This document shows, piece by piece, positions 10,750 through 38,794 of a stretch of 43,735 nt of DNA (position 1 is the stretch's first letter; each line of letters starts with the position of its first letter). Under the pieces are notes generated by a model that was not told the DNA's origin, did not search any database, and worked only from the letters and a program-made list of their open reading frames with translations. The DNA lies in NCBI GenBank assembly GCA_030625165.1, contig DAOURL010000001.1, forward strand, positions 1 to 43,735, written 5' to 3'. Source of the DNA: Methanosarcinales archaeon. GTDB taxonomy: Archaea; Halobacteriota; Methanosarcinia; Methanosarcinales; Methanogasteraceae. The translations under genes and the position numbers were made by a program.

Positions 10750-11328
10750 GTGCCGGTAATCAAAAGTATCATCCGGTTAAACGATCTGGATACGAACTTT
10801 GTAGATGAAGTGATCGAGACTGGAAGCGAGGTTTTTGGCGAGGAGATACCAAAAACGATCATGGCTTGTATGCAGTGCGGTCGGTGTAGTGGCAGCTGTC
10901 CATCCGGGAGGAGGACGGCTTTTCGGACGCGGAAGATATATCGGGAAGTGGTGCTCGGCTTTCGGGAAAAGGTGCTCTCAAGTGACGAACTCTGGTACTG
11001 TACCACCTGTTACACATGTCAGGAACGATGTCCGAGGGGTGTTAAGACGACCGAGATCATACGGATCCTCAGAAACATCGCAGCAAAAGAGGGGTACATG
11101 TCAAAGTCCCACAAGATGGCGGCAGGACATGTCTTCAGGACCGGGCACGCTGTTGCAATAAACGAGGAGATACAGAACGTTAGAGAGGAACTCGGTCTCA
11201 GCAGGCTCCCTCCAACGACCCATTCCCATCCGGAAGCCCTTGCAAAGTTACAGGATATCCTCAGAAAGACACATTTTGATGAACTGGTCGGTTTTGACTG
11301 GGAAACGATGGAATTAAAGGAGGTCTAA
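10750..11328 (+). CDS. hdrC: HdrC-like 2x[4Fe-4S] subunit
   Basis: CMQCGRCSGSCP and CTTCYTCQERCPRGV motifs. 192 aa, GTG start. Confidence 0.85.
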   Translation: MPVIKSIIRLNDLDTNFVDEVIETGSEVFGEEIPKTIMACMQCGRCSGSCPSGRRTAFRTRKIYREVVLGFREKVLSSDELWYCTTCYTCQERCPRGVKTTEIIRILRNIAAKEGYMSKSHKMAAGHVFRTGHAVAINEEIQNVREELGLSRLPPTTHSHPEALAKLQDILRKTHFDELVGFDWETMELKEV

Positions 11329-11333
11329 ATATT

Positions 11334-12230
11334 ATGGAAGAAAAGACTTATGCCTGTTTCCTGGGCTGTGTTATCCCGAACAGGTATCCCGGGATTGAGT
11401 TGTCAACTGTTAAGATGCTAAGAGAACTGGGCGTCGAGTCGGTTGATATGCCAGGTGCTGGCTGCTGTCCGGCTCCAGGAGTATTCGGGTCATTTGACTT
11501 AAAGACCTGGCTTGCTCTGGCAGCGAGAAACATCTGTATCGCAGAAGAGCTCGGGTGCGATATCATGACCATGTGCAATGGTTGCTATGGATCTCTTCAG
11601 GAGGCTGACCATCTGCTGAAAGGAGACCCGCTACTAAAAGATAAGGTAAATGAGATACTCGCGCCCGAGATGGAATACAAGGGCACGATCAACGTGAAGC
11701 ACCAGGTTGAGATATTCACTGATGATATTGGCATTGAGCGGATAAAAGAAGCCATAACAATGCCCCTTGATGGACTTCGGGTTGGAGTTCATTATGGGTG
11801 CCACTTCTTAAAGCCAAGCGCTGTGCGTGGTCACGGGAAGGCTGAGAGACCAGGGATGGTAGACGCTCTCGTTGAGGTCACCGGTGCAAAGAGCGTGGAG
11901 TACAAGGATAAGATGATGTGCTGCGGCTTTGGCGGAGGAGTCAGGACGAGGGACATCGAGGTTGCTCTTGATATCACGAAGGAGAAGATAACAAACATGT
12001 TGGATGCCGGGGTGGACTGTACTGTTAATCCCTGTGCATCCTGTCACCTGCAGTTTGACAGGGGACAGGTTGAGATCGAACATATCTTTGGAGACCGTTT
12101 CAATCTTCCGGTACTATACTATTCCCAGCTCCTGGGTCTTGCGATGGGGCACGATCCCAGGGAACTTGGCATGCACAAGCAGAACATACCAACTGACCCG
12201 GTACTTGACAAGGTGGAGGGATTGAAATGA
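11334..12230 (+). CDS. hdrB: HdrB-like subunit (two CCG domains)
   Basis: Contains GCCPAPG, CNGCYGSL, MCCGFGGG and PCASCHLQFD. 298 aa. Confidence 0.9.
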   Translation: MEEKTYACFLGCVIPNRYPGIELSTVKMLRELGVESVDMPGAGCCPAPGVFGSFDLKTWLALAARNICIAEELGCDIMTMCNGCYGSLQEADHLLKGDPLLKDKVNEILAPEMEYKGTINVKHQVEIFTDDIGIERIKEAITMPLDGLRVGVHYGCHFLKPSAVRGHGKAERPGMVDALVEVTGAKSVEYKDKMMCCGFGGGVRTRDIEVALDITKEKITNMLDAGVDCTVNPCASCHLQFDRGQVEIEHIFGDRFNLPVLYYSQLLGLAMGHDPRELGMHKQNIPTDPVLDKVEGLK

Positions 12231-14179
12231 ATATTGGAGTCTATGTCTGCCATTGCGGCACGAATATTGCAGGTGTGATCGATGTCGAGAAGGTGACAGA
12301 GTATGCCACTACCCTGGATGGCGTTGTTGTGGCAAGGAATTACAAGTATATGTGCTCTGATCCGGGCAAGGATCTTATCAGAAGCGATATAAAAGAGAAT
12401 AATCTGGATCGCGTGGTGGTTGCAGCCTGCTCTCCTACCATGCATGAGAAGACGTATCGGGATGTGATGGAAGAGATGGGCGGAAATCCGTTCCTCTTTG
12501 AGATGGCAAATATCAGAGAGCAGGACTCATGGGTTCACACGGATAAGGATATGGCAACCGAGAAGGCTTATGACCTGGTGCGGATGGCGGTTGCAAAGGT
12601 CAGGCGAAACGAGCCACTTGAGAGAATCGAGATCCCTGTAACCCAGCGTGCTCTTATTATCGGAGGCGGGGTTGCTGGTATGGAGGCGAGTCTCGACCTT
12701 GCAGAACAGGGCTACGAGGTTATTATGGTTGAGAAGGAGCAGAGCATCGGAGGTCACATGTCTCAGCTTACAAAGACCTTCCCGACACTGGACTGCCCGA
12801 TGTGCATCCTTGCACCGAAGATGGCGCTGCATGAGCATAAGAACATAACCATTTACTCCTTTTCAGAGATCGAAGAGGTCTCTGGCTATGTCGGCAACTT
12901 CGAGGTCTCGATAAGGAAAAAGGCAAAGTCGGTCATAGAAGACCTCTGCAACGGCTGTGGTCTCTGCCAGGAGAAGTGCCCCACAAAGGTTCTGAGCGTG
13001 TATGACGGGAAGCTTGGAACGAGGAAAGCCATCTACACCCTCTTTCCCCAGGCGGTTCCGAGAATTCCGGTTCTGGACAGAGAGAACTGCCTGATGTTCA
13101 CCAAGGGCACGTGCGGCGTATGCAAGAAGGTCTGCCCCACGGATGCTATCGATTATGATCAGCAGGATGAGATCATAACAGAAAAGGTCGGCGCTATAAT
13201 CGTTGCCACCGGTTATGCTGAGTACGACCCAACTCCAATCGAGGAGTACGGCTACGGCAGATACAAGAATGTCCTGACAGGTCTCCAGTTTGAGAGGCTC
13301 ACGAATGCATCAGGACCGACACTGGGCGTGCTCAAGAGACCATCTGATGGCGCCACGCCAAAGAGGTTCGCGTTCATCCAGTGCGTCGGCTCCAGAGATG
13401 TGAATACCCAGGAGTACTGCTCGAAGGTATGCTGTATGTATACTGTTAAGAATGCAAGGCTGCTCAGAGACGAGCATCCGGAGAGCGAGGTGTACATATT
13501 CTACACAGATGTTCGGTCTGCTGGTAAGGGCTACGAGGAGTTCTATAAGATATCCCAGGAGAAAGGCGTCAAATTCATAAGAGGAAGAGTGTCCGAGGTC
13601 GTTGGACTTCCTGATGATAACCTGCTTTTGAGGACAGAGGATACCCTGACCGGGGATGTGTACGAAGTAGAGGTTGACATGGCGATACTGGCGTGCGCGC
13701 TTCTGCCGGCAGAGGGTTCAGATAAGTTAAGAGACATACTGAAGATCTCTGAGGGGACAGATGGGTTCTTCATGGAGGCACATCCCAAGTTAAGACCTGT
13801 TGATACGCTGACCGATGGAATATACCTGGCAGGCTGCGCCCAAGGTCCAAGAGACATAGCAGATACAGTGGTTCATGCCAAGGGTGCTGCTTCTGGCGCG
13901 TCTGTCCTCATATCCCATACGAAGATGAGCCTTGACCCGATCTCGGCTTACAGCGACGAGAGCGTATGCAGGGGATGCGGGGAATGTAAGCTCGTCTGCC
14001 AGTTCGGCGCGATCGAGATCGAGCCTCTGAATGGCAGACTGATTGCTAAGGTAAACGAGGTACTATGCAAGGGGTGCGGTGCCTGTGTCGGTGCATGCTG
14101 CAATGGTGCCATGAGTATAAGACACTTCAAGGATGAGCAGATCAATTCAATGATCGAGGCAGCGATGGAGGTGGCATGA
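12227..14179 (+). CDS. hdrA: HdrA, canonical full architecture
   Basis: All domains are present: N-terminal VYVCHCGTNIAG; IIGGGVAGMEASLDLA; TFPTLDCPMCILAPK; inserted ferredoxin CNGCGLCQEKCP and CGVCKKVCPTDA; QCVGSRD..YCSKVCC; C-terminal CRGCGECKLVCQ and CKGCGACVGACC. ATGA overlap with hdrB. Confidence 0.95.
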   Translation: MNIGVYVCHCGTNIAGVIDVEKVTEYATTLDGVVVARNYKYMCSDPGKDLIRSDIKENNLDRVVVAACSPTMHEKTYRDVMEEMGGNPFLFEMANIREQDSWVHTDKDMATEKAYDLVRMAVAKVRRNEPLERIEIPVTQRALIIGGGVAGMEASLDLAEQGYEVIMVEKEQSIGGHMSQLTKTFPTLDCPMCILAPKMALHEHKNITIYSFSEIEEVSGYVGNFEVSIRKKAKSVIEDLCNGCGLCQEKCPTKVLSVYDGKLGTRKAIYTLFPQAVPRIPVLDRENCLMFTKGTCGVCKKVCPTDAIDYDQQDEIITEKVGAIIVATGYAEYDPTPIEEYGYGRYKNVLTGLQFERLTNASGPTLGVLKRPSDGATPKRFAFIQCVGSRDVNTQEYCSKVCCMYTVKNARLLRDEHPESEVYIFYTDVRSAGKGYEEFYKISQEKGVKFIRGRVSEVVGLPDDNLLLRTEDTLTGDVYEVEVDMAILACALLPAEGSDKLRDILKISEGTDGFFMEAHPKLRPVDTLTDGIYLAGCAQGPRDIADTVVHAKGAASGASVLISHTKMSLDPISAYSDESVCRGCGECKLVCQFGAIEIEPLNGRLIAKVNEVLCKGCGACVGACCNGAMSIRHFKDEQINSMIEAAMEVA

Positions 14180-14586: not shown

Positions 14587-15740
14587 CGGCAGTAGACGAT
14601 CTTATGCGGGATGCCGGAGCCTATTACTGTATTGAATGCGGTAAGTGTACAACCGTCTGCCCGATTGCTAATGCCGACCCTGAGTTTGCTCCCAGATTGA
14701 TCGTGGTAAAGGCGATGGCTGGCATTGCGAATGTTGCACTGGAGCCGGACATCTGGAGATGCATGACCTGTGAGACCTGTAGCGAGATGTGCCCGTATAA
14801 TGTTCTCTACTCCGAGTTTATAAGGGGACTCAGGGCAGAGGCGGCCTCCATGGGAATCGTTTCTGTCTGCTCTCAGCACGATCTGATGCAGACCATGATG
14901 AGGATGATGGCGACTCCAGGGATAGAGCAGAATAGACTGGGCTGGGTCACTCCGGACTTGAAGATTGCTGATAAAGGAGAGGTCTTCTACTTCACAGGCT
15001 GTCTGCCCCAGATGAGTACCATCTTTAGGGATCAAGAGGATCTGAACCTGATCGGGATCGCTCAGAGTGCTGTTGCGATATTCAATCGCGCAGGTATCAC
15101 GCCTGTTGTGAGCAATCAGGAGGTCTGCTGCGGTCATGATCTGAACTGGACTGGCGATGAAGTGAACTTTGAGAAACTGATGAGGATAAACCTGGATTTG
15201 ATCAAGAAGAGCGGGGCTACGAAGGTTGTTTTCACCTGTGCCGAGTGCCTGAGAACATTTGAGATCGATTACCAGGATATAGCAGGCGATCTGGATTACG
15301 AGCTCCTGCACATCTCTGAGTTTGTCGATGACCTCGTGGCTGAGGGGAAGATCACCTTCGATGGTGTCGAGGAGAAGGTCACCTACCATGACCCATGCAG
15401 ACTTGGAAGGCACCTCGGCATATACGATGCTCCCAGGAATGTTATCGGAGCGATAGAGGGCATGGACTTGATCGAGATGGAGAGAACCAGGGAAAAATCA
15501 GCCTGCTGCGGAGTAAGCGCATGGCTTACCTGCGATAGCATTGCAAAGGAGATGCAGCTTGCGCGCATGGTGGAGGCTGTGGGAACCGGAAGCAAAAAAC
15601 TCATAACATCCTGTCCGAAGTGCCAGATTCATCTGAGGTGTGCGATCTCTGAGGAGATGCCGATTGAGAGGGAGAAGGCAGACATACCGATCGAGGACTT
15701 CACCATTCTGGTCGCAAATTCGATAAAAACAGGAGCGTGA
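14583..15740 (+). CDS. Soluble HdrD-like protein (fused HdrC/HdrB-type: 2x[4Fe-4S] plus two CCG domains)
   Basis: Contains CIECGKCTTVCP, CMTCETCSEMCP, CCGHD, CAECLRTF, CCGVS and CPKCQIHL. No transmembrane segments and no adjacent hdrE. Confidence 0.8.
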   Translation: MTAVDDLMRDAGAYYCIECGKCTTVCPIANADPEFAPRLIVVKAMAGIANVALEPDIWRCMTCETCSEMCPYNVLYSEFIRGLRAEAASMGIVSVCSQHDLMQTMMRMMATPGIEQNRLGWVTPDLKIADKGEVFYFTGCLPQMSTIFRDQEDLNLIGIAQSAVAIFNRAGITPVVSNQEVCCGHDLNWTGDEVNFEKLMRINLDLIKKSGATKVVFTCAECLRTFEIDYQDIAGDLDYELLHISEFVDDLVAEGKITFDGVEEKVTYHDPCRLGRHLGIYDAPRNVIGAIEGMDLIEMERTREKSACCGVSAWLTCDSIAKEMQLARMVEAVGTGSKKLITSCPKCQIHLRCAISEEMPIEREKADIPIEDFTILVANSIKTGA

Positions 15741-17038
15741 AAGTCATGGTAAATAAAGCACTGGTAATTGGCGGCGGGGTTGCTGGCATCCAGGCATCCC
15801 TTGATCTGGCAGACAGAGGCACCGAGGTATATGTTGTTGAGAAAGAACCAAGCATAGGCGGGAGAATGTCGCAACTTGACAAGACCTTCCCGACAAACGA
15901 CTGCTCGATATGCATCCTTGCCCCGAAGATGGCTGACTGCTTCGGGCATTCCAACATCAATGTCATGACCTACTCTGAGGTACAGGATGTAACCGGCAGC
16001 GCTGGAGATTTCACAGTAACCGTCCTCAAGAAAGCGAGGTATGTGGACGCTGAAAAATGTACCGGCTGCGGGGAATGCATGGAGAAGTGCCCGGTTAAGA
16101 AGATACCAAACAAGTTTGAGATGGGTCTTGGTTTCAGGAGGGCTATATACCTACCATTTTTGCAGGCAGTACCAAGGATAGCAACAATCGATGCTGAGAA
16201 CTGTCTGTACCTGACGAAAGGCAAATGCGGAAACTGCGCCAAGGTCTGCCAGAGAGAGGCGATTCTGTACGACCAGAAGGATGAGATAGTCGAGATCAAC
16301 GTGGGCGCAATAATCGTTGCGACAGGCTATGATGTCTGGGACCCGACTCCTGCGAGCGAGTACGGGTATGGCAGGTATCCCAATATCTATACTGCAATGG
16401 AATATGAGCGGCTCATCTGTGCTGCAGGTCCGACGCAGGGTCACATGGAACGGAGGTCGGATGGAAAAAGACCCAAAAAGATTGCATTCATCCAGTGTGT
16501 GGGTTCCAGAAATGTCCAGATGGGACGCCCCTATTGTTGTAGCGTCTGCTGCATGCACGCAACGAAAGAGGCGATCCTTGCAAGAGAGCACCATGACGAT
16601 ATCGAGAGTTTCATATTCTATAAAGCCCTCCGCACCTTTGGAAAGGGCTTCAATGAGTATATGGAGCGTGCCAAATCGGACTACGGCGTAGTTTACATAA
16701 ACTCGGATGCAACGGTACAGGAAAACCCTGAGAACCAGAACCCGATCGTTGTTTACGATCTCGATGGGCACATCGAGAAGAAGGAAGTGGATATCGTGGT
16801 ACTGGCAACATCCCTGATCCCGAGACCAGAGACGAGGGTACTGGCTGAAAAGATCGGCATAAGTGTGGACCAGTTCGGATTTCTGGAGTCCGTAGACAAG
16901 CTTCTGGCTCCTCTGGATACGAAGATTCCAGGGATATTCCTTGCTGGCTACTGCCACGAGCCCATGGACATACCAGAAGCGGTCGCTCAGGCGAGCGGTG
17001 CTGCTGCAAGGGCATCCGAAGTGATGGAGGTGGGATAG
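15737..17038 (+). CDS. hdrA: HdrA-like, A' architecture (FAD domain plus inserted ferredoxin only)
   Basis: Starts directly at ALVIGGGVAGIQASLDLA. Contains TFPTNDCSICILAPK, CTGCGECMEKCP, CGNCAKVCQREA and QCVGSRN..CCSVCC. It has no N-terminal CxCG domain and no C-terminal ferredoxin. Ends with TAG at 17036-17038. Confidence 0.85.
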   Translation: MKVMVNKALVIGGGVAGIQASLDLADRGTEVYVVEKEPSIGGRMSQLDKTFPTNDCSICILAPKMADCFGHSNINVMTYSEVQDVTGSAGDFTVTVLKKARYVDAEKCTGCGECMEKCPVKKIPNKFEMGLGFRRAIYLPFLQAVPRIATIDAENCLYLTKGKCGNCAKVCQREAILYDQKDEIVEINVGAIIVATGYDVWDPTPASEYGYGRYPNIYTAMEYERLICAAGPTQGHMERRSDGKRPKKIAFIQCVGSRNVQMGRPYCCSVCCMHATKEAILAREHHDDIESFIFYKALRTFGKGFNEYMERAKSDYGVVYINSDATVQENPENQNPIVVYDLDGHIEKKEVDIVVLATSLIPRPETRVLAEKIGISVDQFGFLESVDKLLAPLDTKIPGIFLAGYCHEPMDIPEAVAQASGAAARASEVMEVG

Positions 17039-18847
17039 ATGGAACAAACGGAACCGCGCATCGGAGTTTTTGTCTGTCACTGCGGCGTCAACATCGGAGG
17101 CTTTGTGGATGTGCCAGATGTGGTTCGGTACGTAAAGACACTGCCAAACGTGGTGCATGCGGATCGAAACCTCTATACCTGCGCTGATGATGGGCTTGCT
17201 GCTATCAGGGATGCCATAAAGGAGCGCGACCTGAATCGTGTGATCGTTGCTTCCTGTACTCCACGGACACACGCTCCACTATTCAAGAGAACATGTGAGG
17301 AGGCGGGTCTCAACAAGTACCTCTTCGAGTTTGTCAACATCAGAGAACACTGCTCATGGGTACACATGAAGGAGCCAGAGAAGGCAACAGAGAAGGCAAA
17401 GATGTTGATAGCGATGGGTGTGGCTAAAGCTGCTTTGCTTGAGCCACAGGAAGAAGAGAGAGTACCTGTGGAACCGAAAGCCCTTGTTCTGGGAGGTGGT
17501 GTTGCTGGTATGACTGCTGCCCTGAGCCTTGCAAACCAGGGATTTGAGACCTATCTTGTGGAAAAGGAAGACAAGTTAGGGGGCTTTGTCCGGAACCTCG
17601 ATACCCTGTATCAGACCGGAAAAGACGCTCTTGAGAGCATAACCCCCTTGATTGATAAGGTAACTGCAAATAAGAATATTCACATCCTCACCTCTTCAAC
17701 CCTCAAAGACGTGGAGGGTTACATCGGAAACTACGAGGTAACGATGGCGGGCAATGGTGGAGAGACCGTGGCGAAGGTTGGAGCCATCATCGTCGCTACC
17801 GGTGCAGAGGAGTACAAACCGGCAGGACTCTACGGATACGGCGAATACGAAAATGTCGTGACTCTAAAAGAGTTTGAGAGGATGGAGAAGGAGAAGACGC
17901 TTCCCGCAACAAAGAGCGTGGCATTTATCCAGTGCGCGGGCGCACGCGGGCAGGTACTCGAATACTGCTCGAGGATATGCTGTACAAACGCGATAAAGAG
18001 TGCGATGAAACTTGTGGGAACAGAGGCGCCCGAAACACTCCCGGAAGCCGGAAGAGTGGGCAGGAGGCGGAGGAGAAAAGCTGTGGCTTCCGCTCCACCA
18101 GAGGTAGAAGTCACCATCTTCAACAGGGGAATAACCACTTATGGGGTAGAGCACGAACTCATGTATAATAACGCAAGAGGGATGGGCATCAGGTTTGTTA
18201 AGTATACCCCGGAAAACCCACCAGAGGTCTCCAGGGAAGGGGACAGACTGGTAATATCCTACCACAATGAAACCCTGAAGACGGATCAGACGATGAGTCC
18301 GGACTTGATCGTTCTATCTACGCCCCTCGTCCAGATCCCTGAGGCAGAGGAGCTATCAAAGATGCTCAAGGTTCCTCTGGGAAGGGATAAGTTCTTCTTC
18401 GAAGCCCATGTTAAGTTGAGACCGCTCGATTTTGCAACAGACGGTATATATCTCTGCGGAACAGCCCACGCACCGGTCTTTATAGACGAGGCGATCTATC
18501 AGGCTTATGGTGCCGCGTCCAGAGCGTCCATACCACTTGCGAATGGCTACGTGCAGGCTGAGGCTATAACTGCTGTAGTGGATGAGGAGCGGTGTATCGG
18601 GTGCGGAAGCTGCGTCGATATATGCCCGTACCATGCCATCGAGCTCTCAGAAAAGGAGGTAATCCTCGAGGAGATAACCCTTGCAACAAGGAAATCCTCT
18701 GTCAATCCCGCCGTCTGCAAGGGCTGCGGTACCTGTGTTGTGACCTGCCCGGTTGGGGCTATCACACAGAGAAACTTTACAACCCCGCAGATAACGGCTG
18801 CGATCAAGGTGTTTGGCGGTGTTCCTGTGTCGCTGGGAGTATCATAA
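17039..18847 (+). CDS. hdrA: HdrA-like, A'' architecture (N-terminal Cys domain, FAD domain without inserted ferredoxin, C-terminal 2x[4Fe-4S])
   Basis: Contains IGVFVCHCGVNIGG, ASCTPRTHAPLF, IREHCSWVH, LVLGGGVAGMTAA, QCAGARG..YCSRICC, CIGCGSCVDICPYHA and CKGCGTCVVTCPVGA. Its ATG immediately follows the TAG of the upstream gene, in the same frame. Confidence 0.85.
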   Translation: MEQTEPRIGVFVCHCGVNIGGFVDVPDVVRYVKTLPNVVHADRNLYTCADDGLAAIRDAIKERDLNRVIVASCTPRTHAPLFKRTCEEAGLNKYLFEFVNIREHCSWVHMKEPEKATEKAKMLIAMGVAKAALLEPQEEERVPVEPKALVLGGGVAGMTAALSLANQGFETYLVEKEDKLGGFVRNLDTLYQTGKDALESITPLIDKVTANKNIHILTSSTLKDVEGYIGNYEVTMAGNGGETVAKVGAIIVATGAEEYKPAGLYGYGEYENVVTLKEFERMEKEKTLPATKSVAFIQCAGARGQVLEYCSRICCTNAIKSAMKLVGTEAPETLPEAGRVGRRRRRKAVASAPPEVEVTIFNRGITTYGVEHELMYNNARGMGIRFVKYTPENPPEVSREGDRLVISYHNETLKTDQTMSPDLIVLSTPLVQIPEAEELSKMLKVPLGRDKFFFEAHVKLRPLDFATDGIYLCGTAHAPVFIDEAIYQAYGAASRASIPLANGYVQAEAITAVVDEERCIGCGSCVDICPYHAIELSEKEVILEEITLATRKSSVNPAVCKGCGTCVVTCPVGAITQRNFTTPQITAAIKVFGGVPVSLGVS

Positions 18848-19159: not shown

Positions 19160-19738
19160 ATGAACACAATAAAGGCAGCAGATTTCGATCCGAATTTCAA
19201 ATTCGAGATCGAGAAGGAACTTGGAGGAGAACATCTCACCAAATGTTTCAACTGCACCGGCTGTACGGTTGGCTGTCCGATCACTGAGATCGAGCCAACA
19301 TACAATCCGAGAAAAGCCATGAGAATGGCGATACTCGGGATGAAGAAGGAACTATTCGAGAGCGAGATCATGTGGCTCTGCGTCTCCTGTTATACCTGTT
19401 ATGACCAGTGTCCGCAGGACGTTCGGATCACCGATGTGTTAAACGCGATGAAGAACATCGCAGAGCGCGAGGAACGGATGGGGCATATCAAACTGGAGAG
19501 TGCAAAGCCAGCGTTCGACAAGGAGTTTGTGGACTCCATCAAGAGACATGGCGAGGTGTATGAAACAGGTGTTGTCATTGCCCAGATCGTGAAACATCAG
19601 GGTATCAAGCGATTGTTTGAATATACCTCGACAGGAATCTTCATGTTCAAAAAAGGAAAACTTTCGCTCATCCCAAAGAACATTAAGGGAATGAAACAGA
19701 TCAAGAATATATTCAGAGTTGTGAGGGGGGAAAAATGA
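19160..19738 (+). CDS. hdrC: HdrC-like 2x[4Fe-4S] subunit
   Basis: CFNCTGCTVGCP and CVSCYTCYDQCPQDV motifs. RBS aggagg before the ATG. Confidence 0.85.
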   Translation: MNTIKAADFDPNFKFEIEKELGGEHLTKCFNCTGCTVGCPITEIEPTYNPRKAMRMAILGMKKELFESEIMWLCVSCYTCYDQCPQDVRITDVLNAMKNIAEREERMGHIKLESAKPAFDKEFVDSIKRHGEVYETGVVIAQIVKHQGIKRLFEYTSTGIFMFKKGKLSLIPKNIKGMKQIKNIFRVVRGEK

Positions 19739-20604
19739 AGTTTTCATATTATCCAGGGTGTGTGATGCACGGAACCGCAGTTGAATTCGGGATGTCCACC
19801 CTGGCAACGTGCGGAACGCTCGGAATCGATATCGTCGAGATACCTGACTGGAACTGCTGCGGAGCGCTGGAGGTATACCCTGATATGTATCTCGAGCTTG
19901 CGTTATCTGCAAGAAATGCGGCTATTGCGGAAGAGACAGGTTTTCCGATGATGACTACCTGTGCGATCTGCTTCCATAATGTATCAAAGGCATATTTTGC
20001 TGTAAACGAGAGCGAAAAAGCAAAGGATATGATAAACGATGCGCTCGGGGATATGAAATACGAGGGAAAAGAGGCGATCAGGCATCTGCTCGATATCCTT
20101 GTATCCGATTATGGTCTTGAGAATATAACAGCAAAGGTCAAGAGATCGCTCGATGGACTAAAAGTAGCACCGTTCTACGGATGTTTGCTGGCAAGACCAA
20201 AGGAGATTGCACGGTTCGATGATCCTGAGAATCCGCAGTTTCTTGACAGACTGATCGATGCTCTCGGAGCTGAGTCGGTGCCATTCGAGCATAAGATGAA
20301 GTGCTGTGGAGGCTCGCTTTTGATGAGCAGGGAGGATCTTGCACATCACCTGTCAAGGGAGATTCTCGAGGAAGCGGTGAACGTCGGCGCAGACTGCCTT
20401 GTGATCACCTGCCCGATGTGCAATGTGCTTCTTGATCTCCAGCAGAAGGAGATCGAGAAACGATACGGCATCACGCTCAACATGCCTGTTCTCTATTTCA
20501 CGCAGTTGATCGGTCTTGCACTCGGACATAAGCCAAAGGAACTCGGACTGGACAAGAACATGGTATCGACTGCGAGCGTTACAAAAAAATTAGGAGTTGG
20601 TTAA
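19735..20604 (+). CDS. hdrB: HdrB-like subunit (two CCG domains)
   Basis: Contains NCCGALE, CAICFHN, KCCGGSL and CPMCNVLLD. ATGA overlap with hdrC. Confidence 0.85.
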   Translation: MKFSYYPGCVMHGTAVEFGMSTLATCGTLGIDIVEIPDWNCCGALEVYPDMYLELALSARNAAIAEETGFPMMTTCAICFHNVSKAYFAVNESEKAKDMINDALGDMKYEGKEAIRHLLDILVSDYGLENITAKVKRSLDGLKVAPFYGCLLARPKEIARFDDPENPQFLDRLIDALGAESVPFEHKMKCCGGSLLMSREDLAHHLSREILEEAVNVGADCLVITCPMCNVLLDLQQKEIEKRYGITLNMPVLYFTQLIGLALGHKPKELGLDKNMVSTASVTKKLGVG

Positions 20605-20605
20605 G

Positions 20606-23600
20606 ATGATCGGTGCAGTTGCAGTTATAGGAGGGGGGATTGCCGGAATACAGGCATCACTCGATCTCGCAGACAGCGGTTACAAGGTGTATGTAATCGA
20701 GAAGACCCCGAGTCTCGGCGGGATCATGGCACAGCTGGATAAGACCTTCCCGACACAGGATTGCTCGTTGTGCATTCTTTCGCCAAAACTGGTGGAGGCT
20801 GGCAGACATCCGAACATTGAACTTCTCACATACACCGAGGCACTCAAGGTAACAGGTTCTGCTGGCGACTTCAAGGTTACTGTTAAGAAGAAGGCGAGAT
20901 ACGTCGATCTGGATAAGTGCACAGGATGTGGATTGTGCGCTGAGAAATGTCCGAGCAAGGTACTATCCGAGTATGATGCAGGAATCGGCAAGAGAAAGGC
21001 GATCTACATCCCGTTTCCGCAGGCGATGCCGAGAGCGGCAACGATCGATGCCGAGCACTGTCTGTATCTGACGAAAGGGAAGTGCGGCGTCTGCAAGAAA
21101 GTCTGTGATGCAGGTGCGATCGATTACGAACAGAAGGATGAGATTGTCGATCTCAATGTCGGTGCTGTCATACTTGCATGTGGACTGGGTACGTTCGATC
21201 CATCGGTATTGACTCAGTACAAATCCGATCACCCAAACGTGGTCACTGCTCTCCAGATGGAGCGTCTGCTCAGTGCATCAGGACCGACTGGTGGTCATGT
21301 GGAACGCCCGAGCGATGGAAAGACCCCGAAGAAGATCGCTTACATCCAGTGCATCGGATCAAGGGATCAGCACAAGACCAACGAATACTGCTCCTCGGTC
21401 TGTTGCATGTATGCGGTCAAGCAATCGATTGTGGCGCTGGAACATGACCCCAATCTGGATATCACGATATTCAGCATCGATGTGCGCGCGGTCAGTAAGG
21501 GTTTCGAGGAACTGTATCAGAAAGCAAAGAATGAACTTGGCATCCGCTACATCATCTCAAGACCACCAGCAGTCTATGAAACAGATGGAGAATTATGGGT
21601 CAAGTATGAGGATGTGGAGGAGGGCGTGGTCAAGCGCATGGATCTTGACATGGTCATTCTTTCGGTCGGTCTCCAGATCACACCACCGGTCAGAGAACTA
21701 CTGGAATCATCCGGAATCGAACTCGATCGATTCGGGAATGTCGCAACCGCAGAAGAGTCTCCTGTTGAGACGAACATACCGGGCATATTTACGTGCGGCA
21801 CATTGCAGGATCCAAAGGACATTCCGACTTCGGTTGCACAGGCATCCGGAGCTGCTGCAATGGCACATGCCATGCTCACTCCCACGCGTGGAACGATGGT
21901 CACCGAGCTTACATATCCGGAAGAGAGGGATATCGGGGATACCCCAAGAGTTGGCGTCTTTGTGTGCCACTGCGGCATCAACATAGGAGGCGTGGTGGAT
22001 GTGCCAGCAGTCGCTGAATATGCAAAAACGCTTCCGAATGTTGTGTTTGCCGCCGATAACCTGTATATGTGTGCAAGCGATGCCCAGGAAATGCTAAAGG
22101 ATATGATCAGGGAGCATGACTTGAACCGGATTGTGGTTGCATCATGCACTCCAAGAACGCATGAACCGCTCTTCCAGACGACATGCAGGGAGGCAGGGTT
22201 AAATCCGTATCTCTTCGAACTCGCCAATATCAGGGAGCATTGCTCATGGGTTCACCAGAAGGAGCCTGAGCGCGCAACCGAGAAGGCAAAAAAGATCGTC
22301 AGGATGGCGGTTGCAAAAGCGAGTTTGTATGAACCGTTGTACAAGCAGGAGGTTCCGCTCATCCACAATGCAGTAGTCATTGGCGGCGGGGTTGCTGGCA
22401 TGTCCGCAGCAATCGAACTTGCTGAGATGGACTTCCCTGTAACCCTGATTGAGAGAGAAGCAGAACTTGGCGGACTGATGAGACGGGTCACAAAACTCCA
22501 TTACGGAAAGGATGCTGCTGATGTCGTTTCCGAACTTGATTCCAAGGTCAGGTCGCATTCAAACATAACGCTTCATACCCAGTCAAAACTTGCATCACTG
22601 GAAGGGTTCCTTGGAAACTTCAAGGGAACGATCGAAACGCCGGAAGGCGCTATTGAACATGAATTTGGGGTTGCGATCATCGCAACCGGTGGCATGGAAC
22701 TTGTGCCCGACGGATATTATGAGTACGGCAAACCAAACATCGTAACACAACTGGAACTTGAGGAGCGGTTGAAGAGCGGACTCGATGTCAAGAACGTGGT
22801 CATGATCCAGTGCGCTGGAGCCAGAAACGATGTCCGGAGATACTGTTCCAGAATCTGCTGCATCGAGGCTGTCAAGAATGCGATACGCATCAGACAGGAA
22901 AGCGATGCAAACGTATATGTTCTGTACAAGGATATGCGGACTTATGGACGATGGGAGGGCATGTACCAGTATGCAAGGGATCTCGGTGTTGTGTTCATAC
23001 GGAGACCTGATGACAAGGACCCGGTTGTTACGGATAACATGGTGCTCGTGCATGACATGCTACTCGGAAGGGATATCGAGATCGACACCGATCTCATCGT
23101 ACTGAGCGCGCCGCTCGTTGCGCCAGATGATGCAGAGGAGACTGCGATGATGTTCAAGGTTCCGCTCGATGCAAACAAGTTCTTCCTTGAGGCGCATGTG
23201 AAATTAAGACCGATTGATTTTGCTACCGAAGGAGTGTTTCTCTGCGGAAGCGCGCACGGTCCGAAGTTCATCGATGAAGCGATTGCTGATGGGGCTGCTG
23301 TGGCATCGAGAGCTGGCAGGATACTTGCAAGTCCGATGCTTGAGACCGAGGCGATCGCGATGGTGGTGGATGAAACAAAATGCATCGGATGCGGCAGGTG
23401 TGTCGAGGTATGTCCGTACGGTGCTCCAGCACTGCATGATGTCGAGGTTACCGTAGAAGAGGTCACGTACACGACAAAGAAGAGCGAGATCAACCCGGCA
23501 GCATGCAAGGGCTGCGGTACATGCGCAACAGGATGCCCGACAAGTGCGATTACTGCACAGCACTTCACGTTCGATTCCATAACTGCATCGATCAGGGCGT

Positions 23601-23719
23601 TTGGTGGCATCAGCGGTAATGGCGATGGGACTGGTGTTATTACTGCAACTAAGACTGCCAGCGATGTGACAGCTGAGGCTACTGAAACATCTGTTGAGGC
23701 GGCTTCGGAAGTGGCATAG
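20606..23719 (+). CDS. hdrA: Fused tandem HdrA (A' module, linker, A'' module), 1037 aa from the ATG
   Basis: The N-terminal half (to about 21880) is collinear with the 15737-17038 product (VIGGGIAGIQASLDLA, TFPTQDCSLCILSPK, CTGCGLCAEKCP, CGVCKKVCDAGA, QCIGSRD..CSSVCC). The C-terminal half (from about 21940) is collinear with the 17039-18847 and 5787-7466 products (VGVFVCHCGINIGG ... CIGCGRCVEVCPYGA, CKGCGTCATGCPTSA). The tracked TTG at 20597 is less likely than the ATG at 20606. TAG stop. Confidence 0.9.
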   Translation: MIGAVAVIGGGIAGIQASLDLADSGYKVYVIEKTPSLGGIMAQLDKTFPTQDCSLCILSPKLVEAGRHPNIELLTYTEALKVTGSAGDFKVTVKKKARYVDLDKCTGCGLCAEKCPSKVLSEYDAGIGKRKAIYIPFPQAMPRAATIDAEHCLYLTKGKCGVCKKVCDAGAIDYEQKDEIVDLNVGAVILACGLGTFDPSVLTQYKSDHPNVVTALQMERLLSASGPTGGHVERPSDGKTPKKIAYIQCIGSRDQHKTNEYCSSVCCMYAVKQSIVALEHDPNLDITIFSIDVRAVSKGFEELYQKAKNELGIRYIISRPPAVYETDGELWVKYEDVEEGVVKRMDLDMVILSVGLQITPPVRELLESSGIELDRFGNVATAEESPVETNIPGIFTCGTLQDPKDIPTSVAQASGAAAMAHAMLTPTRGTMVTELTYPEERDIGDTPRVGVFVCHCGINIGGVVDVPAVAEYAKTLPNVVFAADNLYMCASDAQEMLKDMIREHDLNRIVVASCTPRTHEPLFQTTCREAGLNPYLFELANIREHCSWVHQKEPERATEKAKKIVRMAVAKASLYEPLYKQEVPLIHNAVVIGGGVAGMSAAIELAEMDFPVTLIEREAELGGLMRRVTKLHYGKDAADVVSELDSKVRSHSNITLHTQSKLASLEGFLGNFKGTIETPEGAIEHEFGVAIIATGGMELVPDGYYEYGKPNIVTQLELEERLKSGLDVKNVVMIQCAGARNDVRRYCSRICCIEAVKNAIRIRQESDANVYVLYKDMRTYGRWEGMYQYARDLGVVFIRRPDDKDPVVTDNMVLVHDMLLGRDIEIDTDLIVLSAPLVAPDDAEETAMMFKVPLDANKFFLEAHVKLRPIDFATEGVFLCGSAHGPKFIDEAIADGAAVASRAGRILASPMLETEAIAMVVDETKCIGCGRCVEVCPYGAPALHDVEVTVEEVTYTTKKSEINPAACKGCGTCATGCPTSAITAQHFTFDSITASIRAFGGISGNGDGTGVITATKTASDVTAEATETSVEAASEVA

Positions 23720-23747
23720 GTAAATCGAGGTGATGAGACGGATCAAA

Positions 23748-23792
23748 GGGCTTGAATCTCCGGGAGGGAGGTTTGAGCCCACTGCTATTTTT
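23748..23792 (+). terminator. Hairpin plus T5 tract after the fused hdrA
   Basis: GGGCTTGAATCTCC (23748-23761) pairs over 14 positions with GGAGGTTTGAGCCC (23767-23780), counting three G-U pairs in the plus-strand RNA. A 5-nt loop separates them, and ttttt follows at 23788-23792. Confidence 0.5.
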
Positions 23793-23843
23793 ATCTTATT
23801 ATTTGAGAGATGCAGGCATCTGTCAGCGGCGATCTTCGGTACC

Positions 23844-24788
23844 TCATACGATCTTCTCAATCGTTCTGATGAACTCATCATTCCTGACATAGTTCATGTC
23901 GATACCAAGTTCCTGCGGCGTATATCCCATACCAAGCCCAAGTAGTTGCGAATAATGAATGATTGGCATAACACCCCGCCCTTGCGGGCGGTGGTGTCGA
24001 TGGGTCGCTCTTGGCGATCCATTATTGAAAATATCTCCGAACTTCTTTTCAATATCGATCTGACCAGCATCCATCTGTAGATGGCAGAACGGGCATGAAT
24101 CCACGATGCAGTCAGCGCCGGCATCCCGCGCATGTTCGAGTTTGGCTCTGGTAAAGAGGAGAGACGTATCAAGATCTACAGTCCGCACACCGCCGCCCGC
24201 GCCGCAACATGCATTCTTATCCTTGTACGGAACAGATGTTGCTCCTGTAGCCTCAACAAGTTCATCAAAGAATCTCGGGTTCTCGACACTGCCGAGATGC
24301 CGCTCCTTCGATGGTTTGATCAGATGACAGCCGTAATGCACAGCAACCTTGAGATCGACAGGATACCTGACCGATTCTTTAACCTTCCGGACGCCGATAT
24401 CATCATGCAGATACTCCATGATGTGACGCGCCCGTATCGTACCTTTAAACTCACGTCCGATCTCTGCAAGTGCTTTGTTAACCTCGTTTCGAAGTTCCGG
24501 ATTCTCTTTCAACCTATTGTTTGCATCCGCCAGTGATCCGAAGCAGCCATTGCATACCGTGAGAATATCCACACCCATCTCTTCTGATAACACAATGTTT
24601 CCGGACGCGATTGCAAGCTATATGAGTTCATCGAATGATCTGAAAACTCCAGGTGCCGGACAGCATGATGCTCTTTTGAGTTCCATCAGATGCACGCCGA
24701 GTTCCTCCATCACGAGCTTGGTGGCTTTCTCGATGCCAGGATATCGATTCGGCGCGATGCATCCGAGGAAGAATGATAGTTCGCTCAT
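23844..24788 (-). pseudogene. hdrB: Disrupted hdrB paralog (in-frame TAG and an 18-codon palindromic-element insertion)
   Basis: [20 protein letters not shown]...[16 protein letters not shown], then TAG at 24618-24620, then LAIASGNIVLSEEMGVDILTVCNGCFGSL...ACCGAGGG...CPFCHLQMD, all in one frame. The TAG aligns with Trp in the 11334-12230 paralog. An extra NGSPRATHRHHRPQGRGV sits between FGDIFN and MPIIHYSQLLGL. Confidence 0.7.
23959..24024 (-). repeat. Two-hairpin palindromic element, copy A (in-frame inside hdrB)
   Basis: Read on the minus strand: AATAATG GATCGCCAAGAGCGACC CATCGACACCA CCGCCCGCAAGGGCGG GGTGTTAT. Hairpins are GGATCGC/GCGACCC and CCGCCC/GGGCGG, with a closing stem ATAAT/GTTAT. 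Confidence 0.8.
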
Positions 24789-24850
24789 GATTGGTAATGC
24801 CCTGCCCTTGTGGGCAGTGGTATCGATGGATCGCTCTTGGCGATCCATTA
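24787..24850 (-). repeat. Two-hairpin palindromic element, copy B (immediately 5' of the hdrB start codon)
   Basis: Read on the minus strand: GGTAATG GATCGCCAAGAGCGATCC ATCGATACCA CTGCCCACAAGGGCAG G CATTACC, then aatc ATG. The layout is the same as copy A, and a compensatory C-G to U-A change occurs in the second hairpin. Confidence 0.8.
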
Positions 24851-25024
24851 CCAGAGATCGAGATGTTCAATGGTTCGTCCCACATTTCAGATTTGCCCTG
24901 GATATACTAGTCCGACTCGCGTTCTGCCATCGCGCGCTCTGGCGCATCCTGTGCAGTAAGCACAGAATCAGTTTTGACACCGGATTATCTGAATGTCATG
25001 CCAAGATCGCTGACCCTGATGATA

Positions 25025-26077
25025 TCATTCTTTGAGTTTGCGTGCCAGATACACGGCGAGGTCCACAACCTCAAACGGATAATCGCGCCCGTGCTCTGCG
25101 TCCTCTTCCTCCTTGAGGCAGTTTAAGTGCGCAAGACACTTCGGGCAGGACGTGATCAGCACATCCGCACCTGTCGCTTTCGCCTCGTCCATCCGCATGA
25201 CCCGGAGTGCTTTTGTGCAGTCGTTGCAGTTCATCATCGAACTGACGCCGCAGCAGAGCGCGTTCTCCCTGGTGTGCTGCATCTCGACGATGTTTGCGCC
25301 GGTCGCGGCAATCGCCTTTCGTGGGGCATCATACTCGCCTGTGTGGCGTCCGAGTCTGCACGCGTCGTGGATTGCAGCAGTCGCACTGCCGTTCGTGATC
25401 CCGAGATCAGCATCTGCGAGAACCTGACTGATGTGTTTCACCTCGCAATCGAGGTCGTAATCCATCAGAAACGTCCTGTAACACTCCGCACAACTCACAA
25501 CGAGGGTCTCAATTCCGCTCTCGTTGATAAGCTTTGTATTCTCCTCTTTGAGCTTATCGAACGTCTCCTGATTCCCCTGCCAGAGCTGATCATGCCCGCA
25601 GCATTTGAGCTGCATGATCTTTGGGCTGAGCCCTGCTTTCGAGAGGAGCTTTACAGAGGACGTCGCGATCTCTCCAAAATCCACATCCAAGTCAAAGAAC
25701 ATGTCGTGGAAGTCTACACATCCAGGGAAGTATCCGATTCCAGATGCGTCGCCGCCCTCAAGGAGGGTCGTTTTGCTGTTACCAAGCAGCGTCATTAAGT
25801 TTGCCAGTTCTGTAAAGACGCCTTTGTGTGCGATATCTCTGGGCTCCTTCCCGATTCTCTGATCGAGGAAGAAGTCCAGCAACCGCACACCCTGTGGACA
25901 AGTTGTGACGCACTGTCCACAGGTAAGACAATCCCAGACGTCTGTGTCTGTGTCGTAGATGTTTGAGTCGTAGATCGCACCTCTCGGTGAGAATGGTACA
26001 ACCCTACGCACAGGACAGATGGCAGTACAGGCGCCGCACTGGTAACACACTTGAGAATTGTTCGAATTATTGGTCAC
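25025..26077 (-). CDS. Soluble HdrD-like protein (2x[4Fe-4S] plus two CCG domains)
   Basis: Contains CYQCGACTAICP, CLTCGQCVTTCPQGV, CCGHD, CAECYRTF, CCGVS and CPKCLAHL. 350 aa, no transmembrane segments. Confidence 0.8.
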   Translation of the reverse strand: MTNNSNNSQVCYQCGACTAICPVRRVVPFSPRGAIYDSNIYDTDTDVWDCLTCGQCVTTCPQGVRLLDFFLDQRIGKEPRDIAHKGVFTELANLMTLLGNSKTTLLEGGDASGIGYFPGCVDFHDMFFDLDVDFGEIATSSVKLLSKAGLSPKIMQLKCCGHDQLWQGNQETFDKLKEENTKLINESGIETLVVSCAECYRTFLMDYDLDCEVKHISQVLADADLGITNGSATAAIHDACRLGRHTGEYDAPRKAIAATGANIVEMQHTRENALCCGVSSMMNCNDCTKALRVMRMDEAKATGADVLITSCPKCLAHLNCLKEEEDAEHGRDYPFEVVDLAVYLARKLKE

Positions 26078-34314: not shown

Positions 34315-34436
34315 ACATTCGTGCGATTCGTTTATTCGTGCCATTCGTGACCCCTTGCCAATTTTATGCCTTTGGCGCTGCTCGCTACGCTCACAGTCAC
34401 GAATTACGCGTTTGGGCGAATGACACGAATTTTAAC
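34315..34436. repeat. CACGAAT repeat family member
   Basis: acattcgtgcgattcgtttattcgtgccattcgtga...ttttatgcctttggcgctgctcgctacgctcacagtcacgaatt...cacgaattttaac. The core is the reverse complement of 38710-38755. Confidence 0.8.
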
Positions 34437-38693: not shown

Positions 38694-38794
38694 GTCGTTT
38701 ATTCGTGAAATTCGTGACTGTGAGCGTAGCGAGCAGCGCCGAAGGCATAAAATCACGAATGCCGACAAATACCGCGAATTCCGCGAATTTAACC
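38694..38794. repeat. CACGAAT repeat family member (inverted relative to 34315-34436)
   Basis: gtcgtttattcgtgaaattcgtgactgtgagcgtagcgagcagcgccgaaggcataaaatcacgaat...cgcgaatttaacc. It shares the 17-mer attcgtgaaattcgtga with copies 1 and 2. Confidence 0.85.

Follow-up and report, generated by a model that had tools for sequence, protein, structure and literature searches.

What are the two look-alike segments, each of two hairpins, that lie within and immediately upstream of an hdrB gene (heterodisulfide reductase) in a 43,735-nt stretch of DNA from a Methanosarcinales archaeon of the Methanogasteraceae (GenBank assembly GCA_030625165.1, contig DAOURL010000001.1, positions 1-43,735 of the forward strand; the whole stretch is referred to as the window)? 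The answer favoured here, at a probability of roughly 0.75, is that both segments, copy A and copy B, are members of a family of non-autonomous mobile DNA elements, very small at 51-57 nt, which insert at TA in Methanosarcinales of the ANME-2c type (ANME, anaerobic methanotrophic archaea). [quoted passage not shown] The element is of no use to the cell in the window, where both copies are situated in a decaying hdrC-hdrB operon.

Two copies of one unit in the hdrB region

The two segments and their hairpins are located as follows.

23969-24024, minus strand: copy A, with the core at 23971-24022 and TA at 24023-24024 and 23969-23970; match to the family pattern and to the covariance model (76.6 bits)
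24000-24022, minus strand: hairpin 1 of copy A, ATGGATCGC-CAAGA-GCGACCCAT, containing a single A.C mismatch on this strand; assigned from the fold and from family covariation in helix 1
23971-23997, minus strand: hairpin 2 of copy A, ACACC(A)CCGCCC-GCAA-GGGCGG-GGTGT
24795-24850, minus strand: copy B, 56 nt including both TA; match to the family pattern and to the covariance model (78.6 bits)
24826-24848, minus strand: hairpin 1 of copy B, ATGGATCGC-CAAGA-GCGATCCAT; its first ATG starts an open reading frame (ORF) in frame with hdrB
24797-24823, minus strand: hairpin 2 of copy B, ATACC(A)CTGCCC-ACAA-GGGCAG-GGCAT

The copies, 826 nt apart and in the same orientation, can be aligned over about 56 nt, and their flanks are unrelated except for the 8-mer CCAATCAT. 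A 30-nt core, GGATCGCCAAGAGCGATCCATCGATACCAC, has its sole matches in the window at 23991-24020 and 24817-24846, both on the minus strand, with 0.00 matches expected from shuffles; each copy folds into two adjacent hairpins, equally well on either strand, at z-scores of -4.2 to -4.9 relative to shuffled sequences. Hairpin 1 reads GGATCGC-CAAGA-GCGAYCC in the window copies, and the stem of hairpin 2 is CCGCCC/GGGCGG in copy A and CTGCCC/GGGCAG in copy B. The shared two-hairpin layout, proposed in a preliminary description of this locus, is thus borne out, and the paired C-G to T-A change in hairpin 2 noted there is real. The extent of 64-66 nt given in that description was too large: the element proper comprises 52 nt plus a TA on each side in both copies, and the 8-10 additional bases (CCAATCAT) are native flank, present in orthologues that lack the element.

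Copy A gives hdrB a net gain of exactly 54 nt, or 18 codons (NGSPRATHRHHRPQGRGV), between host residues F-N and M-P. The length and position claimed for this insertion stand, these residues being adjacent in 11 ANME-2c orthologues; the two hdrB paralogues in the window read FN-LP and LN-MP at the site. Copy B was said to end 4 nt before the hdrB start codon and to open an alternative ATG. It ends 6 nt upstream of that codon (A at 24788), and its internal ATG does open an in-frame ORF (24618-24848).

A family of copies in ANME-2 genomes

The preliminary description had proposed a genome-wide search for copies, and a search of public genomes and metagenomes brought up a family. With flanks left free, the core matched 7 loci in public genomes, all in metagenome-assembled genomes (MAGs) of ANME-2/Methanosarcinales and every one with TAAT upstream and YRTTA downstream. 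The gapped pattern TAATGG-N14-24-CATCGAYRCCAC-N12-20-GGYRTTA, for which we estimate about one chance match, was found at 24 genome loci, all in ANME-2-type MAGs (Ca. Methanogaster, UBA203, MAG275 and others), and on 25 metagenome contigs. All named records with the element belong to ANME-2/Methanosarcinales, mainly to Ca. Methanogaster (ANME-2c). After clustering by flank, the combined census amounts to 54 copies at 25 independent sites, several of which are common to different species; apart from the window's two, 23 unrelated sites in other genomes are occupied. A covariance model was built from 25 copies. Viral contigs and the plasmid and phage collections searched contained no copy, Rfam 15 gave no match in 23000-26000 on either strand at E<=10, and no description of such an element was found in the literature on ANME-2 repeats or MITEs.

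Anatomy and covariation of the hairpins

The consensus unit, TA-[ATGG..hairpin 1..CCAT-CG-ATGCC(A)..hairpin 2..GGCAT]-TA, consists of two dissimilar hairpin modules, each standing on an ATG...CAT foot, with a CG joint between them and TA at both borders. Written out for the minus strand, it is TA, then ATGGATCGC-CAAGA-GCGATCCAT, then CG, then ATGCC(A)CTGCCC-GCA(A)-GGGCAG-GGCAT, then TA. Across sites the stems vary with retention of pairing, both in hairpin 1 (GGATCGC/GCGATCC, GGACTCC/GGAGTCC, GGATTCC/GGAATCC, GGAAATCGC/GCGATTTTC and others) and in hairpin 2 (CTGCCC, CCGCCC, CAGCC, CTGTCC and others). Paired cells make up 94.9% in our alignment A2, compared to 30-43% when partners are slid by 1-3 columns; changes on both sides occur in 8 of the 20 pairs, and none of 500 shuffles reaches the observed values. 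The foot of hairpin 2 in copy A, ACACC/GGTGT instead of the consensus ATGCC/GGCAT, differs by two double compensatory changes and so supports pairing in an extended hairpin.

The terminal inverted repeat is just 3-5 nt long (TAATG/CATTA; 3 nt beyond TA), and complementarity of the flanks beyond it is at chance level. The closing stem of the preliminary description, which would join the two ends, is not adopted as a family feature, given that flank pairing is at chance and that the scorable covariation in the feet favours extended hairpins. A 5-bp TAATG/CATTA helix is physically possible; the bases concerned are fixed by the search pattern. Stem mismatches comprise 33 G.T and 24 A.C, with neither strand clearly favoured, and strand-specific selection, whether on RNA or on single-stranded DNA, was dismissed on this count. 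The consensus TAATGGATCGCCAAGAGCGATCCATCGATGCCACTGCCCGCAGGGCAGGGCATTA contains no GTAG or CGTC tag on either strand. Four of the six frames through the element are free of stops, frame 1 being closed by TAA on each strand, and it is owing to these open frames that variants adding a net 51, 54 or 57 nt survive inside genes as short peptide insertions.

Empty and filled sites at TA

Comparison of occupied sites with their unoccupied counterparts places the element precisely between two TA dinucleotides. At hdrB, 11 ANME-2c orthologues (75-77% amino acid identity) have the empty site TTTAA-TA-TGCCAATC (F N M P I), and the window has TTCAA-TA-[52 nt]-TA-TGCCAATC; the insertion is found only in the window's lineage and in a 97%-identical relative, MAG_107. 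In at least four contigs, an rve-type transposase gene of an insertion sequence (IS) is interrupted by the element at an identical TA and is frameshifted there (L002, L005, L065, L073, L074). Its empty form, ...GAGACTA-TA-CCGCAGCGC... in an intact gene of 418 amino acids, corresponds to ...GAGACTA-TA-[51 nt]-TA-CCGCAGCGC... in L073, and removal in silico of the element together with one TA regains an ORF of 409 amino acids. In UBA203, the gene for the small subunit of DNA polymerase D (PolD) has gained a further copy (+54 nt), placed precisely at the TA that terminates an older one. The two empty/filled pairs, read as sequence, fit a 2-bp target-site duplication as the source of the TA found at either side. 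Over the 25 sites, the target context displays a weak purine/pyrimidine preference around TA, with a purine at -1 in 23 of the 25, and no longer motif. The copies in the IS differ at 0-3 positions in the 55-nt element, as against a flank divergence of 6-10%, which is not clearly different. The rve-type IS family itself is abundant in ANME-2c, the intact 418-residue transposase having hundreds of homologues (L164/L165 were used for the comparison).

Copies within and beside intact genes

In several hosts the element is accommodated without loss of the reading frame. The PolD small subunit harbours an in-frame copy between its OB and phosphoesterase domains in an intact ORF of 514 amino acids; other intact genes, confirmed with Pfam, contain it in frame as well (a response-regulator/PAS/GAF protein, DUF2240 and, antisense, an Asn-synthase-like protein). 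The net length within intact ORFs is 51, 54 or 57 nt in every case, two DUF2240 alleles differing by exactly 3 nt, and the commonest form, of 55 nt (net 53), is always located between genes or in transposase-like genes. Three different transposase-like genes contain copies, which lie within these genes and not at their ends. Further copies are placed between rrp42 and rpl37ae, upstream of aIF5A and directly before a start codon.

Of the 10 close relatives sampled, 7 still have the PolD insertion in frame, and one of these has it doubled in tandem (UBA203, L087 984-1100); the remaining three (L088, L091 and L098, the window's species among them) retain a 15-nt remnant after an in-frame deletion of 42 nt, and in more distant ANME-2 the insertion is absent or unalignable. 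The insertion is ancestral to the Methanogaster clade, and no clean empty site was found for it, the linkers of distant relatives being unalignable. The hairpins of orthologous PolD copies range from intact to badly eroded (minimum free energy -35 to -9 kcal/mol), a decay which argues against selection on the structure after insertion and is expected of relics rather than of a selected RNA. Downstream of PolD in UBA203, the segment L087 2119-2174 (plus strand) gives a weak covariance-model match (17.9 bits; TAATGCGGTGTCGAC...CATCGACGCCTTCGGCATTA) and resembles a decayed extra copy.

Tandem copies adjoin a tRNA gene. The arrays (L003 4917-5035, minus strand; L015 2961-3076, plus strand; also L006 and L011) lie directly against the 3' end of an intron-like tRNA gene not called by ARAGORN. 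From alignment, the differences between species in these arrays would be best explained by module swapping through recombination at the conserved CATCGATGCCAC junction.

Mode of movement and competing explanations

In the mechanism that we propose, the element would be moved in trans by an enzyme encoded by the host or by an IS. Since the stems covary and the terminal inverted repeat measures only 3-5 nt, this enzyme would recognise the hairpin structure and not long terminal inverted repeats, and staggered cleavage at TA would generate the 2-bp duplication. As to its identity, our leading guess, offered tentatively and at less than even odds, is a DDE transposase that duplicates TA (IS630/Tc1-mariner type). 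A more far-reaching version, which we consider rather unlikely, makes the family the first archaeal counterpart of the REP and RPE world, including the bacterial interspersed mosaic elements (BIMEs) composed of REPs: modular hairpins would be recognised by shape, a TA-targeting HUH or other non-classical transposase would move them, modules would be reshuffled at the conserved CATCGATG and CATTAATG junctions, and short peptide linkers would be donated repeatedly to essential proteins of ANME-2c, for example the PolD small subunit.

Several observations weigh against a mobile family of this kind. Detectable copies number only about 2-7 per MAG; covariance-model scans revealed no additional copy in 145 kb of unbiased ANME-2 sequence and none elsewhere in the window, also when filters were switched off. 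The census covers only relatives that keep the junctions fixed in the patterns (TAATGG, CATCGAYRCCAC and GGYRTTA), and all genomes compared are fragmented MAGs. The repeat TAATG/CATTA is far below the 15-30 bp usual for MITEs and IS630-mobilised elements, and the sequences at the empty and filled sites would be equally compatible with a 54-nt unit inserted beside a pre-existing TA. Finally, when 1081 ORFs from the loci (up to 8 kb on either side of the copies) were compared all against all with BLASTP, no relevant recurrent partner gene emerged, and no autonomous parent or transposase gene with matching ends was seen in these flanks.

One alternative is that the hairpins constitute the left and right ends of a minimal IS200/IS605-like element, or of one like REPs and their associated tyrosine transposases (RAYTs), in which HUH-type transposition of single-stranded DNA 3' of TA mobilises the unit ATGG...CATTA with no duplication. 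We consider this unlikely. It would account for the lack of a real terminal inverted repeat and for the two conserved, covarying stem-loops with their conserved feet; the tandem and chimeric arrays resemble BIMEs, REPs are known inside replication and repair genes (PMC3733652) in parallel to the PolD copy, and the empty/filled pairs are formally compatible with insertion beside TA. However, the GTAG/CGTC tag is absent, and the two hairpins are mutually unlike, whereas IS200/IS605 ends are similar. The lack of a clear G.T over A.C excess favours neither strand, and the target beyond TA is reduced to the purine at -1, whereas IS200/IS605 elements use a target of 4-5 nt. No Y1 transposase or other recurrent gene was seen near the copies, and no RAYT (HUH Y1) gene appeared among the matches listed for their flanks in these fragmented MAGs. 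Selection on the inserted peptide, for instance as a loop rich in His, Cys and Arg that adds function to host proteins, is hardly credible. In-frame PolD copies are retained across at least six species, and the peptide is rich in His and Cys; but the hosts differ in the frame used and both orientations occur (NGSPRAIHR..., MPRPAGGGIDG...), the PolD peptide drifts freely and is shortened by 42 nt in three lineages, and a composite peptide search of 5.8 billion proteins matched only 7 tiny hypothetical ORFs and was uninformative.

A functional structured RNA, either a hairpin pair that regulates or stabilises transcripts or a bulge-helix-bulge intron removed from mRNA, was the other possibility raised in the preliminary description and is very improbable. 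Strong folding (z about -4 to -5), covarying stems and the position of several copies at gene starts or ends would suit such an RNA. Against this, the family has no Rfam match, the short folds and those of 156 nt contain no bulge-helix-bulge, the flanks do not pair, and copies are found in intergenic positions and, in L016 and L013, in antisense orientation within or between genes. Examination of the boundaries for a bulge-helix-bulge, which had been suggested at the outset, disclosed two plain hairpins and neither an exon-exon nor an exon-intron helix. Both strands fold equally well with no bias of G.U over A.C, orthologous PolD hairpins decay, and in-gene net lengths are multiples of 3, as is needed only if the insert is translated. 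That the window copies arose locally, by duplication or gene conversion of sequence from the hdrB region with no mobile element involved, deserves next to no credence. The copies do lie 826 nt apart in the same orientation and within a single gene, no other full copy was detected in the MAG of this species, CCAATCAT follows both of them, and signs of conversion between them are present in L001. As the origin of the family, local duplication is nonetheless refuted by the 23 other unrelated sites in other genomes and by CCAATCAT being native at both sites in element-free orthologues; the clean 54-nt insertion with TA on both sides, compared to the empty site, speaks against it as well. Conversion between the window copies is likely as a secondary process.

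The mobile element thus remains the preferred explanation, and the initial suggestion of a miniature mobile palindromic element comparable to RPEs is upheld by the 25 independent sites, the lineage-specific insertions flanked by TA and the in-frame copies in intact genes.

Relation to known repeat families

RPEs are small palindromic repeats that occur in frame in unrelated, apparently functional protein genes and persist there as peptide insertions (PMC10969869, PMC3733652); they are bacterial, measure about 100-150 bp and carry a CGTC tag (PMC3733652). The ANME-2 element resembles them in the in-frame colonisation of intact genes (PolD, a GAF sensor, DUF2240, an AsnS-like gene), which is a shared behaviour and not homology. 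It is archaeal, 51-57 nt long and hence three times smaller, consists of two distinct hairpins with TA flanks and no CGTC tag, and exhibits no sequence relation to RPEs. A tetranucleotide, GTAG or CGTC, conserved at one of the palindrome's ends defines REPs (PMC3733652). With REPs, BIMEs and REPINs the element has in common imperfect hairpin units of 20-30 nt, conserved feet, stems that vary by compensatory changes, arrays that are tandem or mosaic, and copies that occasionally lie inside replication genes; in contrast to them, its units are arranged in direct and not inverted order, the GTAG/CGTC tag is missing, copy number is low and no RAYT-like gene was seen nearby. The apparent TA duplication has not been described for REPs.

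Correia/NEMIS of Neisseria, RUP of pneumococcus and Nezha of cyanobacteria are MITEs mobilised by IS630-type transposases, with TA duplication, a length of 100-160 bp, terminal inverted repeats of about 26 bp and one long hairpin. The ANME-2 element is likewise non-autonomous, low in coding capacity, bordered by TA on both sides, endowed with stable hairpins and located in or beside genes; however, its inverted termini measure only 3-5 nt, its body is made of two hairpins independent of each other, and the search brought up no IS630-like parent. Measured by the features of classical MITEs, it is small, non-coding, multi-copy and present at unrelated sites, and it displays an apparent target-site duplication (hdrB, rve transposase, PolD tandem), whereas terminal inverted repeats of 15-30 bp are lacking. 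Archaeal MITEs compiled in review comprise the SM elements of Sulfolobus, elements of Halobacterium, MITEs and PATEs of Haloquadratum, those of Desulfurococcus and few others (PMC10969869). They too are non-autonomous repeats presumed to be mobilised in trans, and none has been reported from ANME-2. To our knowledge, they exceed the ANME-2 element in size, end in clear terminal inverted repeats or in sequence derived from an IS, and are not noted for inserting in frame into essential genes. The bulge-helix-bulge introns of archaea, which are marked by a 3-nt bulge, a 4-bp helix and a second 3-nt bulge, occur in tRNA, rRNA and a few mRNAs. They are also short structured inserts in archaeal genes, but the element lacks their motif, is found on both strands and has lengths in multiples of 3 within genes, of which an intron would have no need.

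The family has importance in several respects. The uncultured ANME-2c archaea have a key part in the oxidation of methane in the sea, and their mobile DNA is almost unstudied. The range of prokaryotic mobile repeats would be widened by an element with a core of 51 nt, in which two independent hairpins replace the terminal inverted repeats and yet a clean TA duplication appears to result. In-frame colonisation of protein genes of the RPE kind extends to archaea, even to a subunit of the replicative polymerase, which bears on how proteins acquire loops. In practical terms, the element provides a marker for the Methanogaster clade and probably gives rise to contig breaks, mis-annotated N-termini and odd inserts of 18-19 residues in ANME-2c proteomes.

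The decaying hdrC-hdrB operon

The host locus of the window copies comprises the following features.

23844-24788, minus strand: probable hdrB pseudogene, host of copy A; orthologue of ANME-2c hdrB (75-77% amino acid identity)
24618-24620, minus strand: in-frame TAG at the position of a Trp (TWLA motif) in all orthologues; TAG also in the relative L025
about 24851-25020, minus strand: degraded, frameshifted remainder of hdrC (5' half), with stops in all frames and indels of 1, 2 and 14 nt

Relative to the 97%-identical hdrB of L025, the window gene has 18 differences, distributed 6/5/7 over codon positions and affecting 12 codons nonsynonymously and 6 synonymously; relative to the functional orthologue L026, the distribution is 33/27/115. 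By these patterns hdrB evolves neutrally and is probably a pseudogene. That the TAG is read as pyrrolysine seems unlikely, since the Trp is conserved, substitutions follow a neutral pattern and hdrC has decayed. With hdrC and hdrB a pseudogene pair, the insertion in frame with hdrB and the alternative ATG are functionally meaningless here, and the weight placed on them in the preliminary description, which had missed the TAG and the degraded hdrC, does not hold. Copy A is in frame by a one-in-three chance that requires no selection.

Gene order in relatives is HdrD-like gene, hdrC, hdrB. Alignment of the orthologous loci shows copy B exactly where some 300 nt are missing, namely the 3' half of hdrC and the hdrB ribosome-binding region to about -9. 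This junction suggests a deletion mediated by the element, and recombination between two copies or a deletion associated with insertion would each fit. In the sister MAG L001 (copy B at 934-989), the 5' arm and loop of hairpin 2 carry a cluster of three substitutions, all of which have the state of copy A and break the copy's own stem; this probably reflects gene conversion between the two copies.

The window also contains a cluster of heterodisulfide reductase paralogues (10750-14179, 15737-18847, 19160-23719 and 25025-26077) with two hdrC-hdrB-hdrA sets, extra hdrA genes, among them one for a double-length HdrA of 1040 amino acids, and an HdrD-like Fer4+CCG gene; loss of a third hdrCB set may therefore be buffered. 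The value of the element in the window is mainly diagnostic, in that it flags an hdrCB operon under loss in a genome with several other hdr paralogues.

Other repeats in the window

A second, unrelated repeat family consists of ATTCGTG/CACGAAT heptamers in direct and inverted arrangement (287-353, 2477-2543, 34317-34430 and 38695-38793). Its 24-nt motif TCGTYYATTCGTGMMATTCGTGAY occurs four times against 0 expected, and two of the copies, mutually inverted, have a 35-nt centre in common; these repeats could represent another MITE-like element or an array of regulator-binding sites. A duplicated segment of about 280 nt with 91-94% identity (194-475 and 2375-2665) lies beside two Na+/H+ exchanger paralogues, and tandem units of 276 nt are present near the right end of the window (42624-43165).

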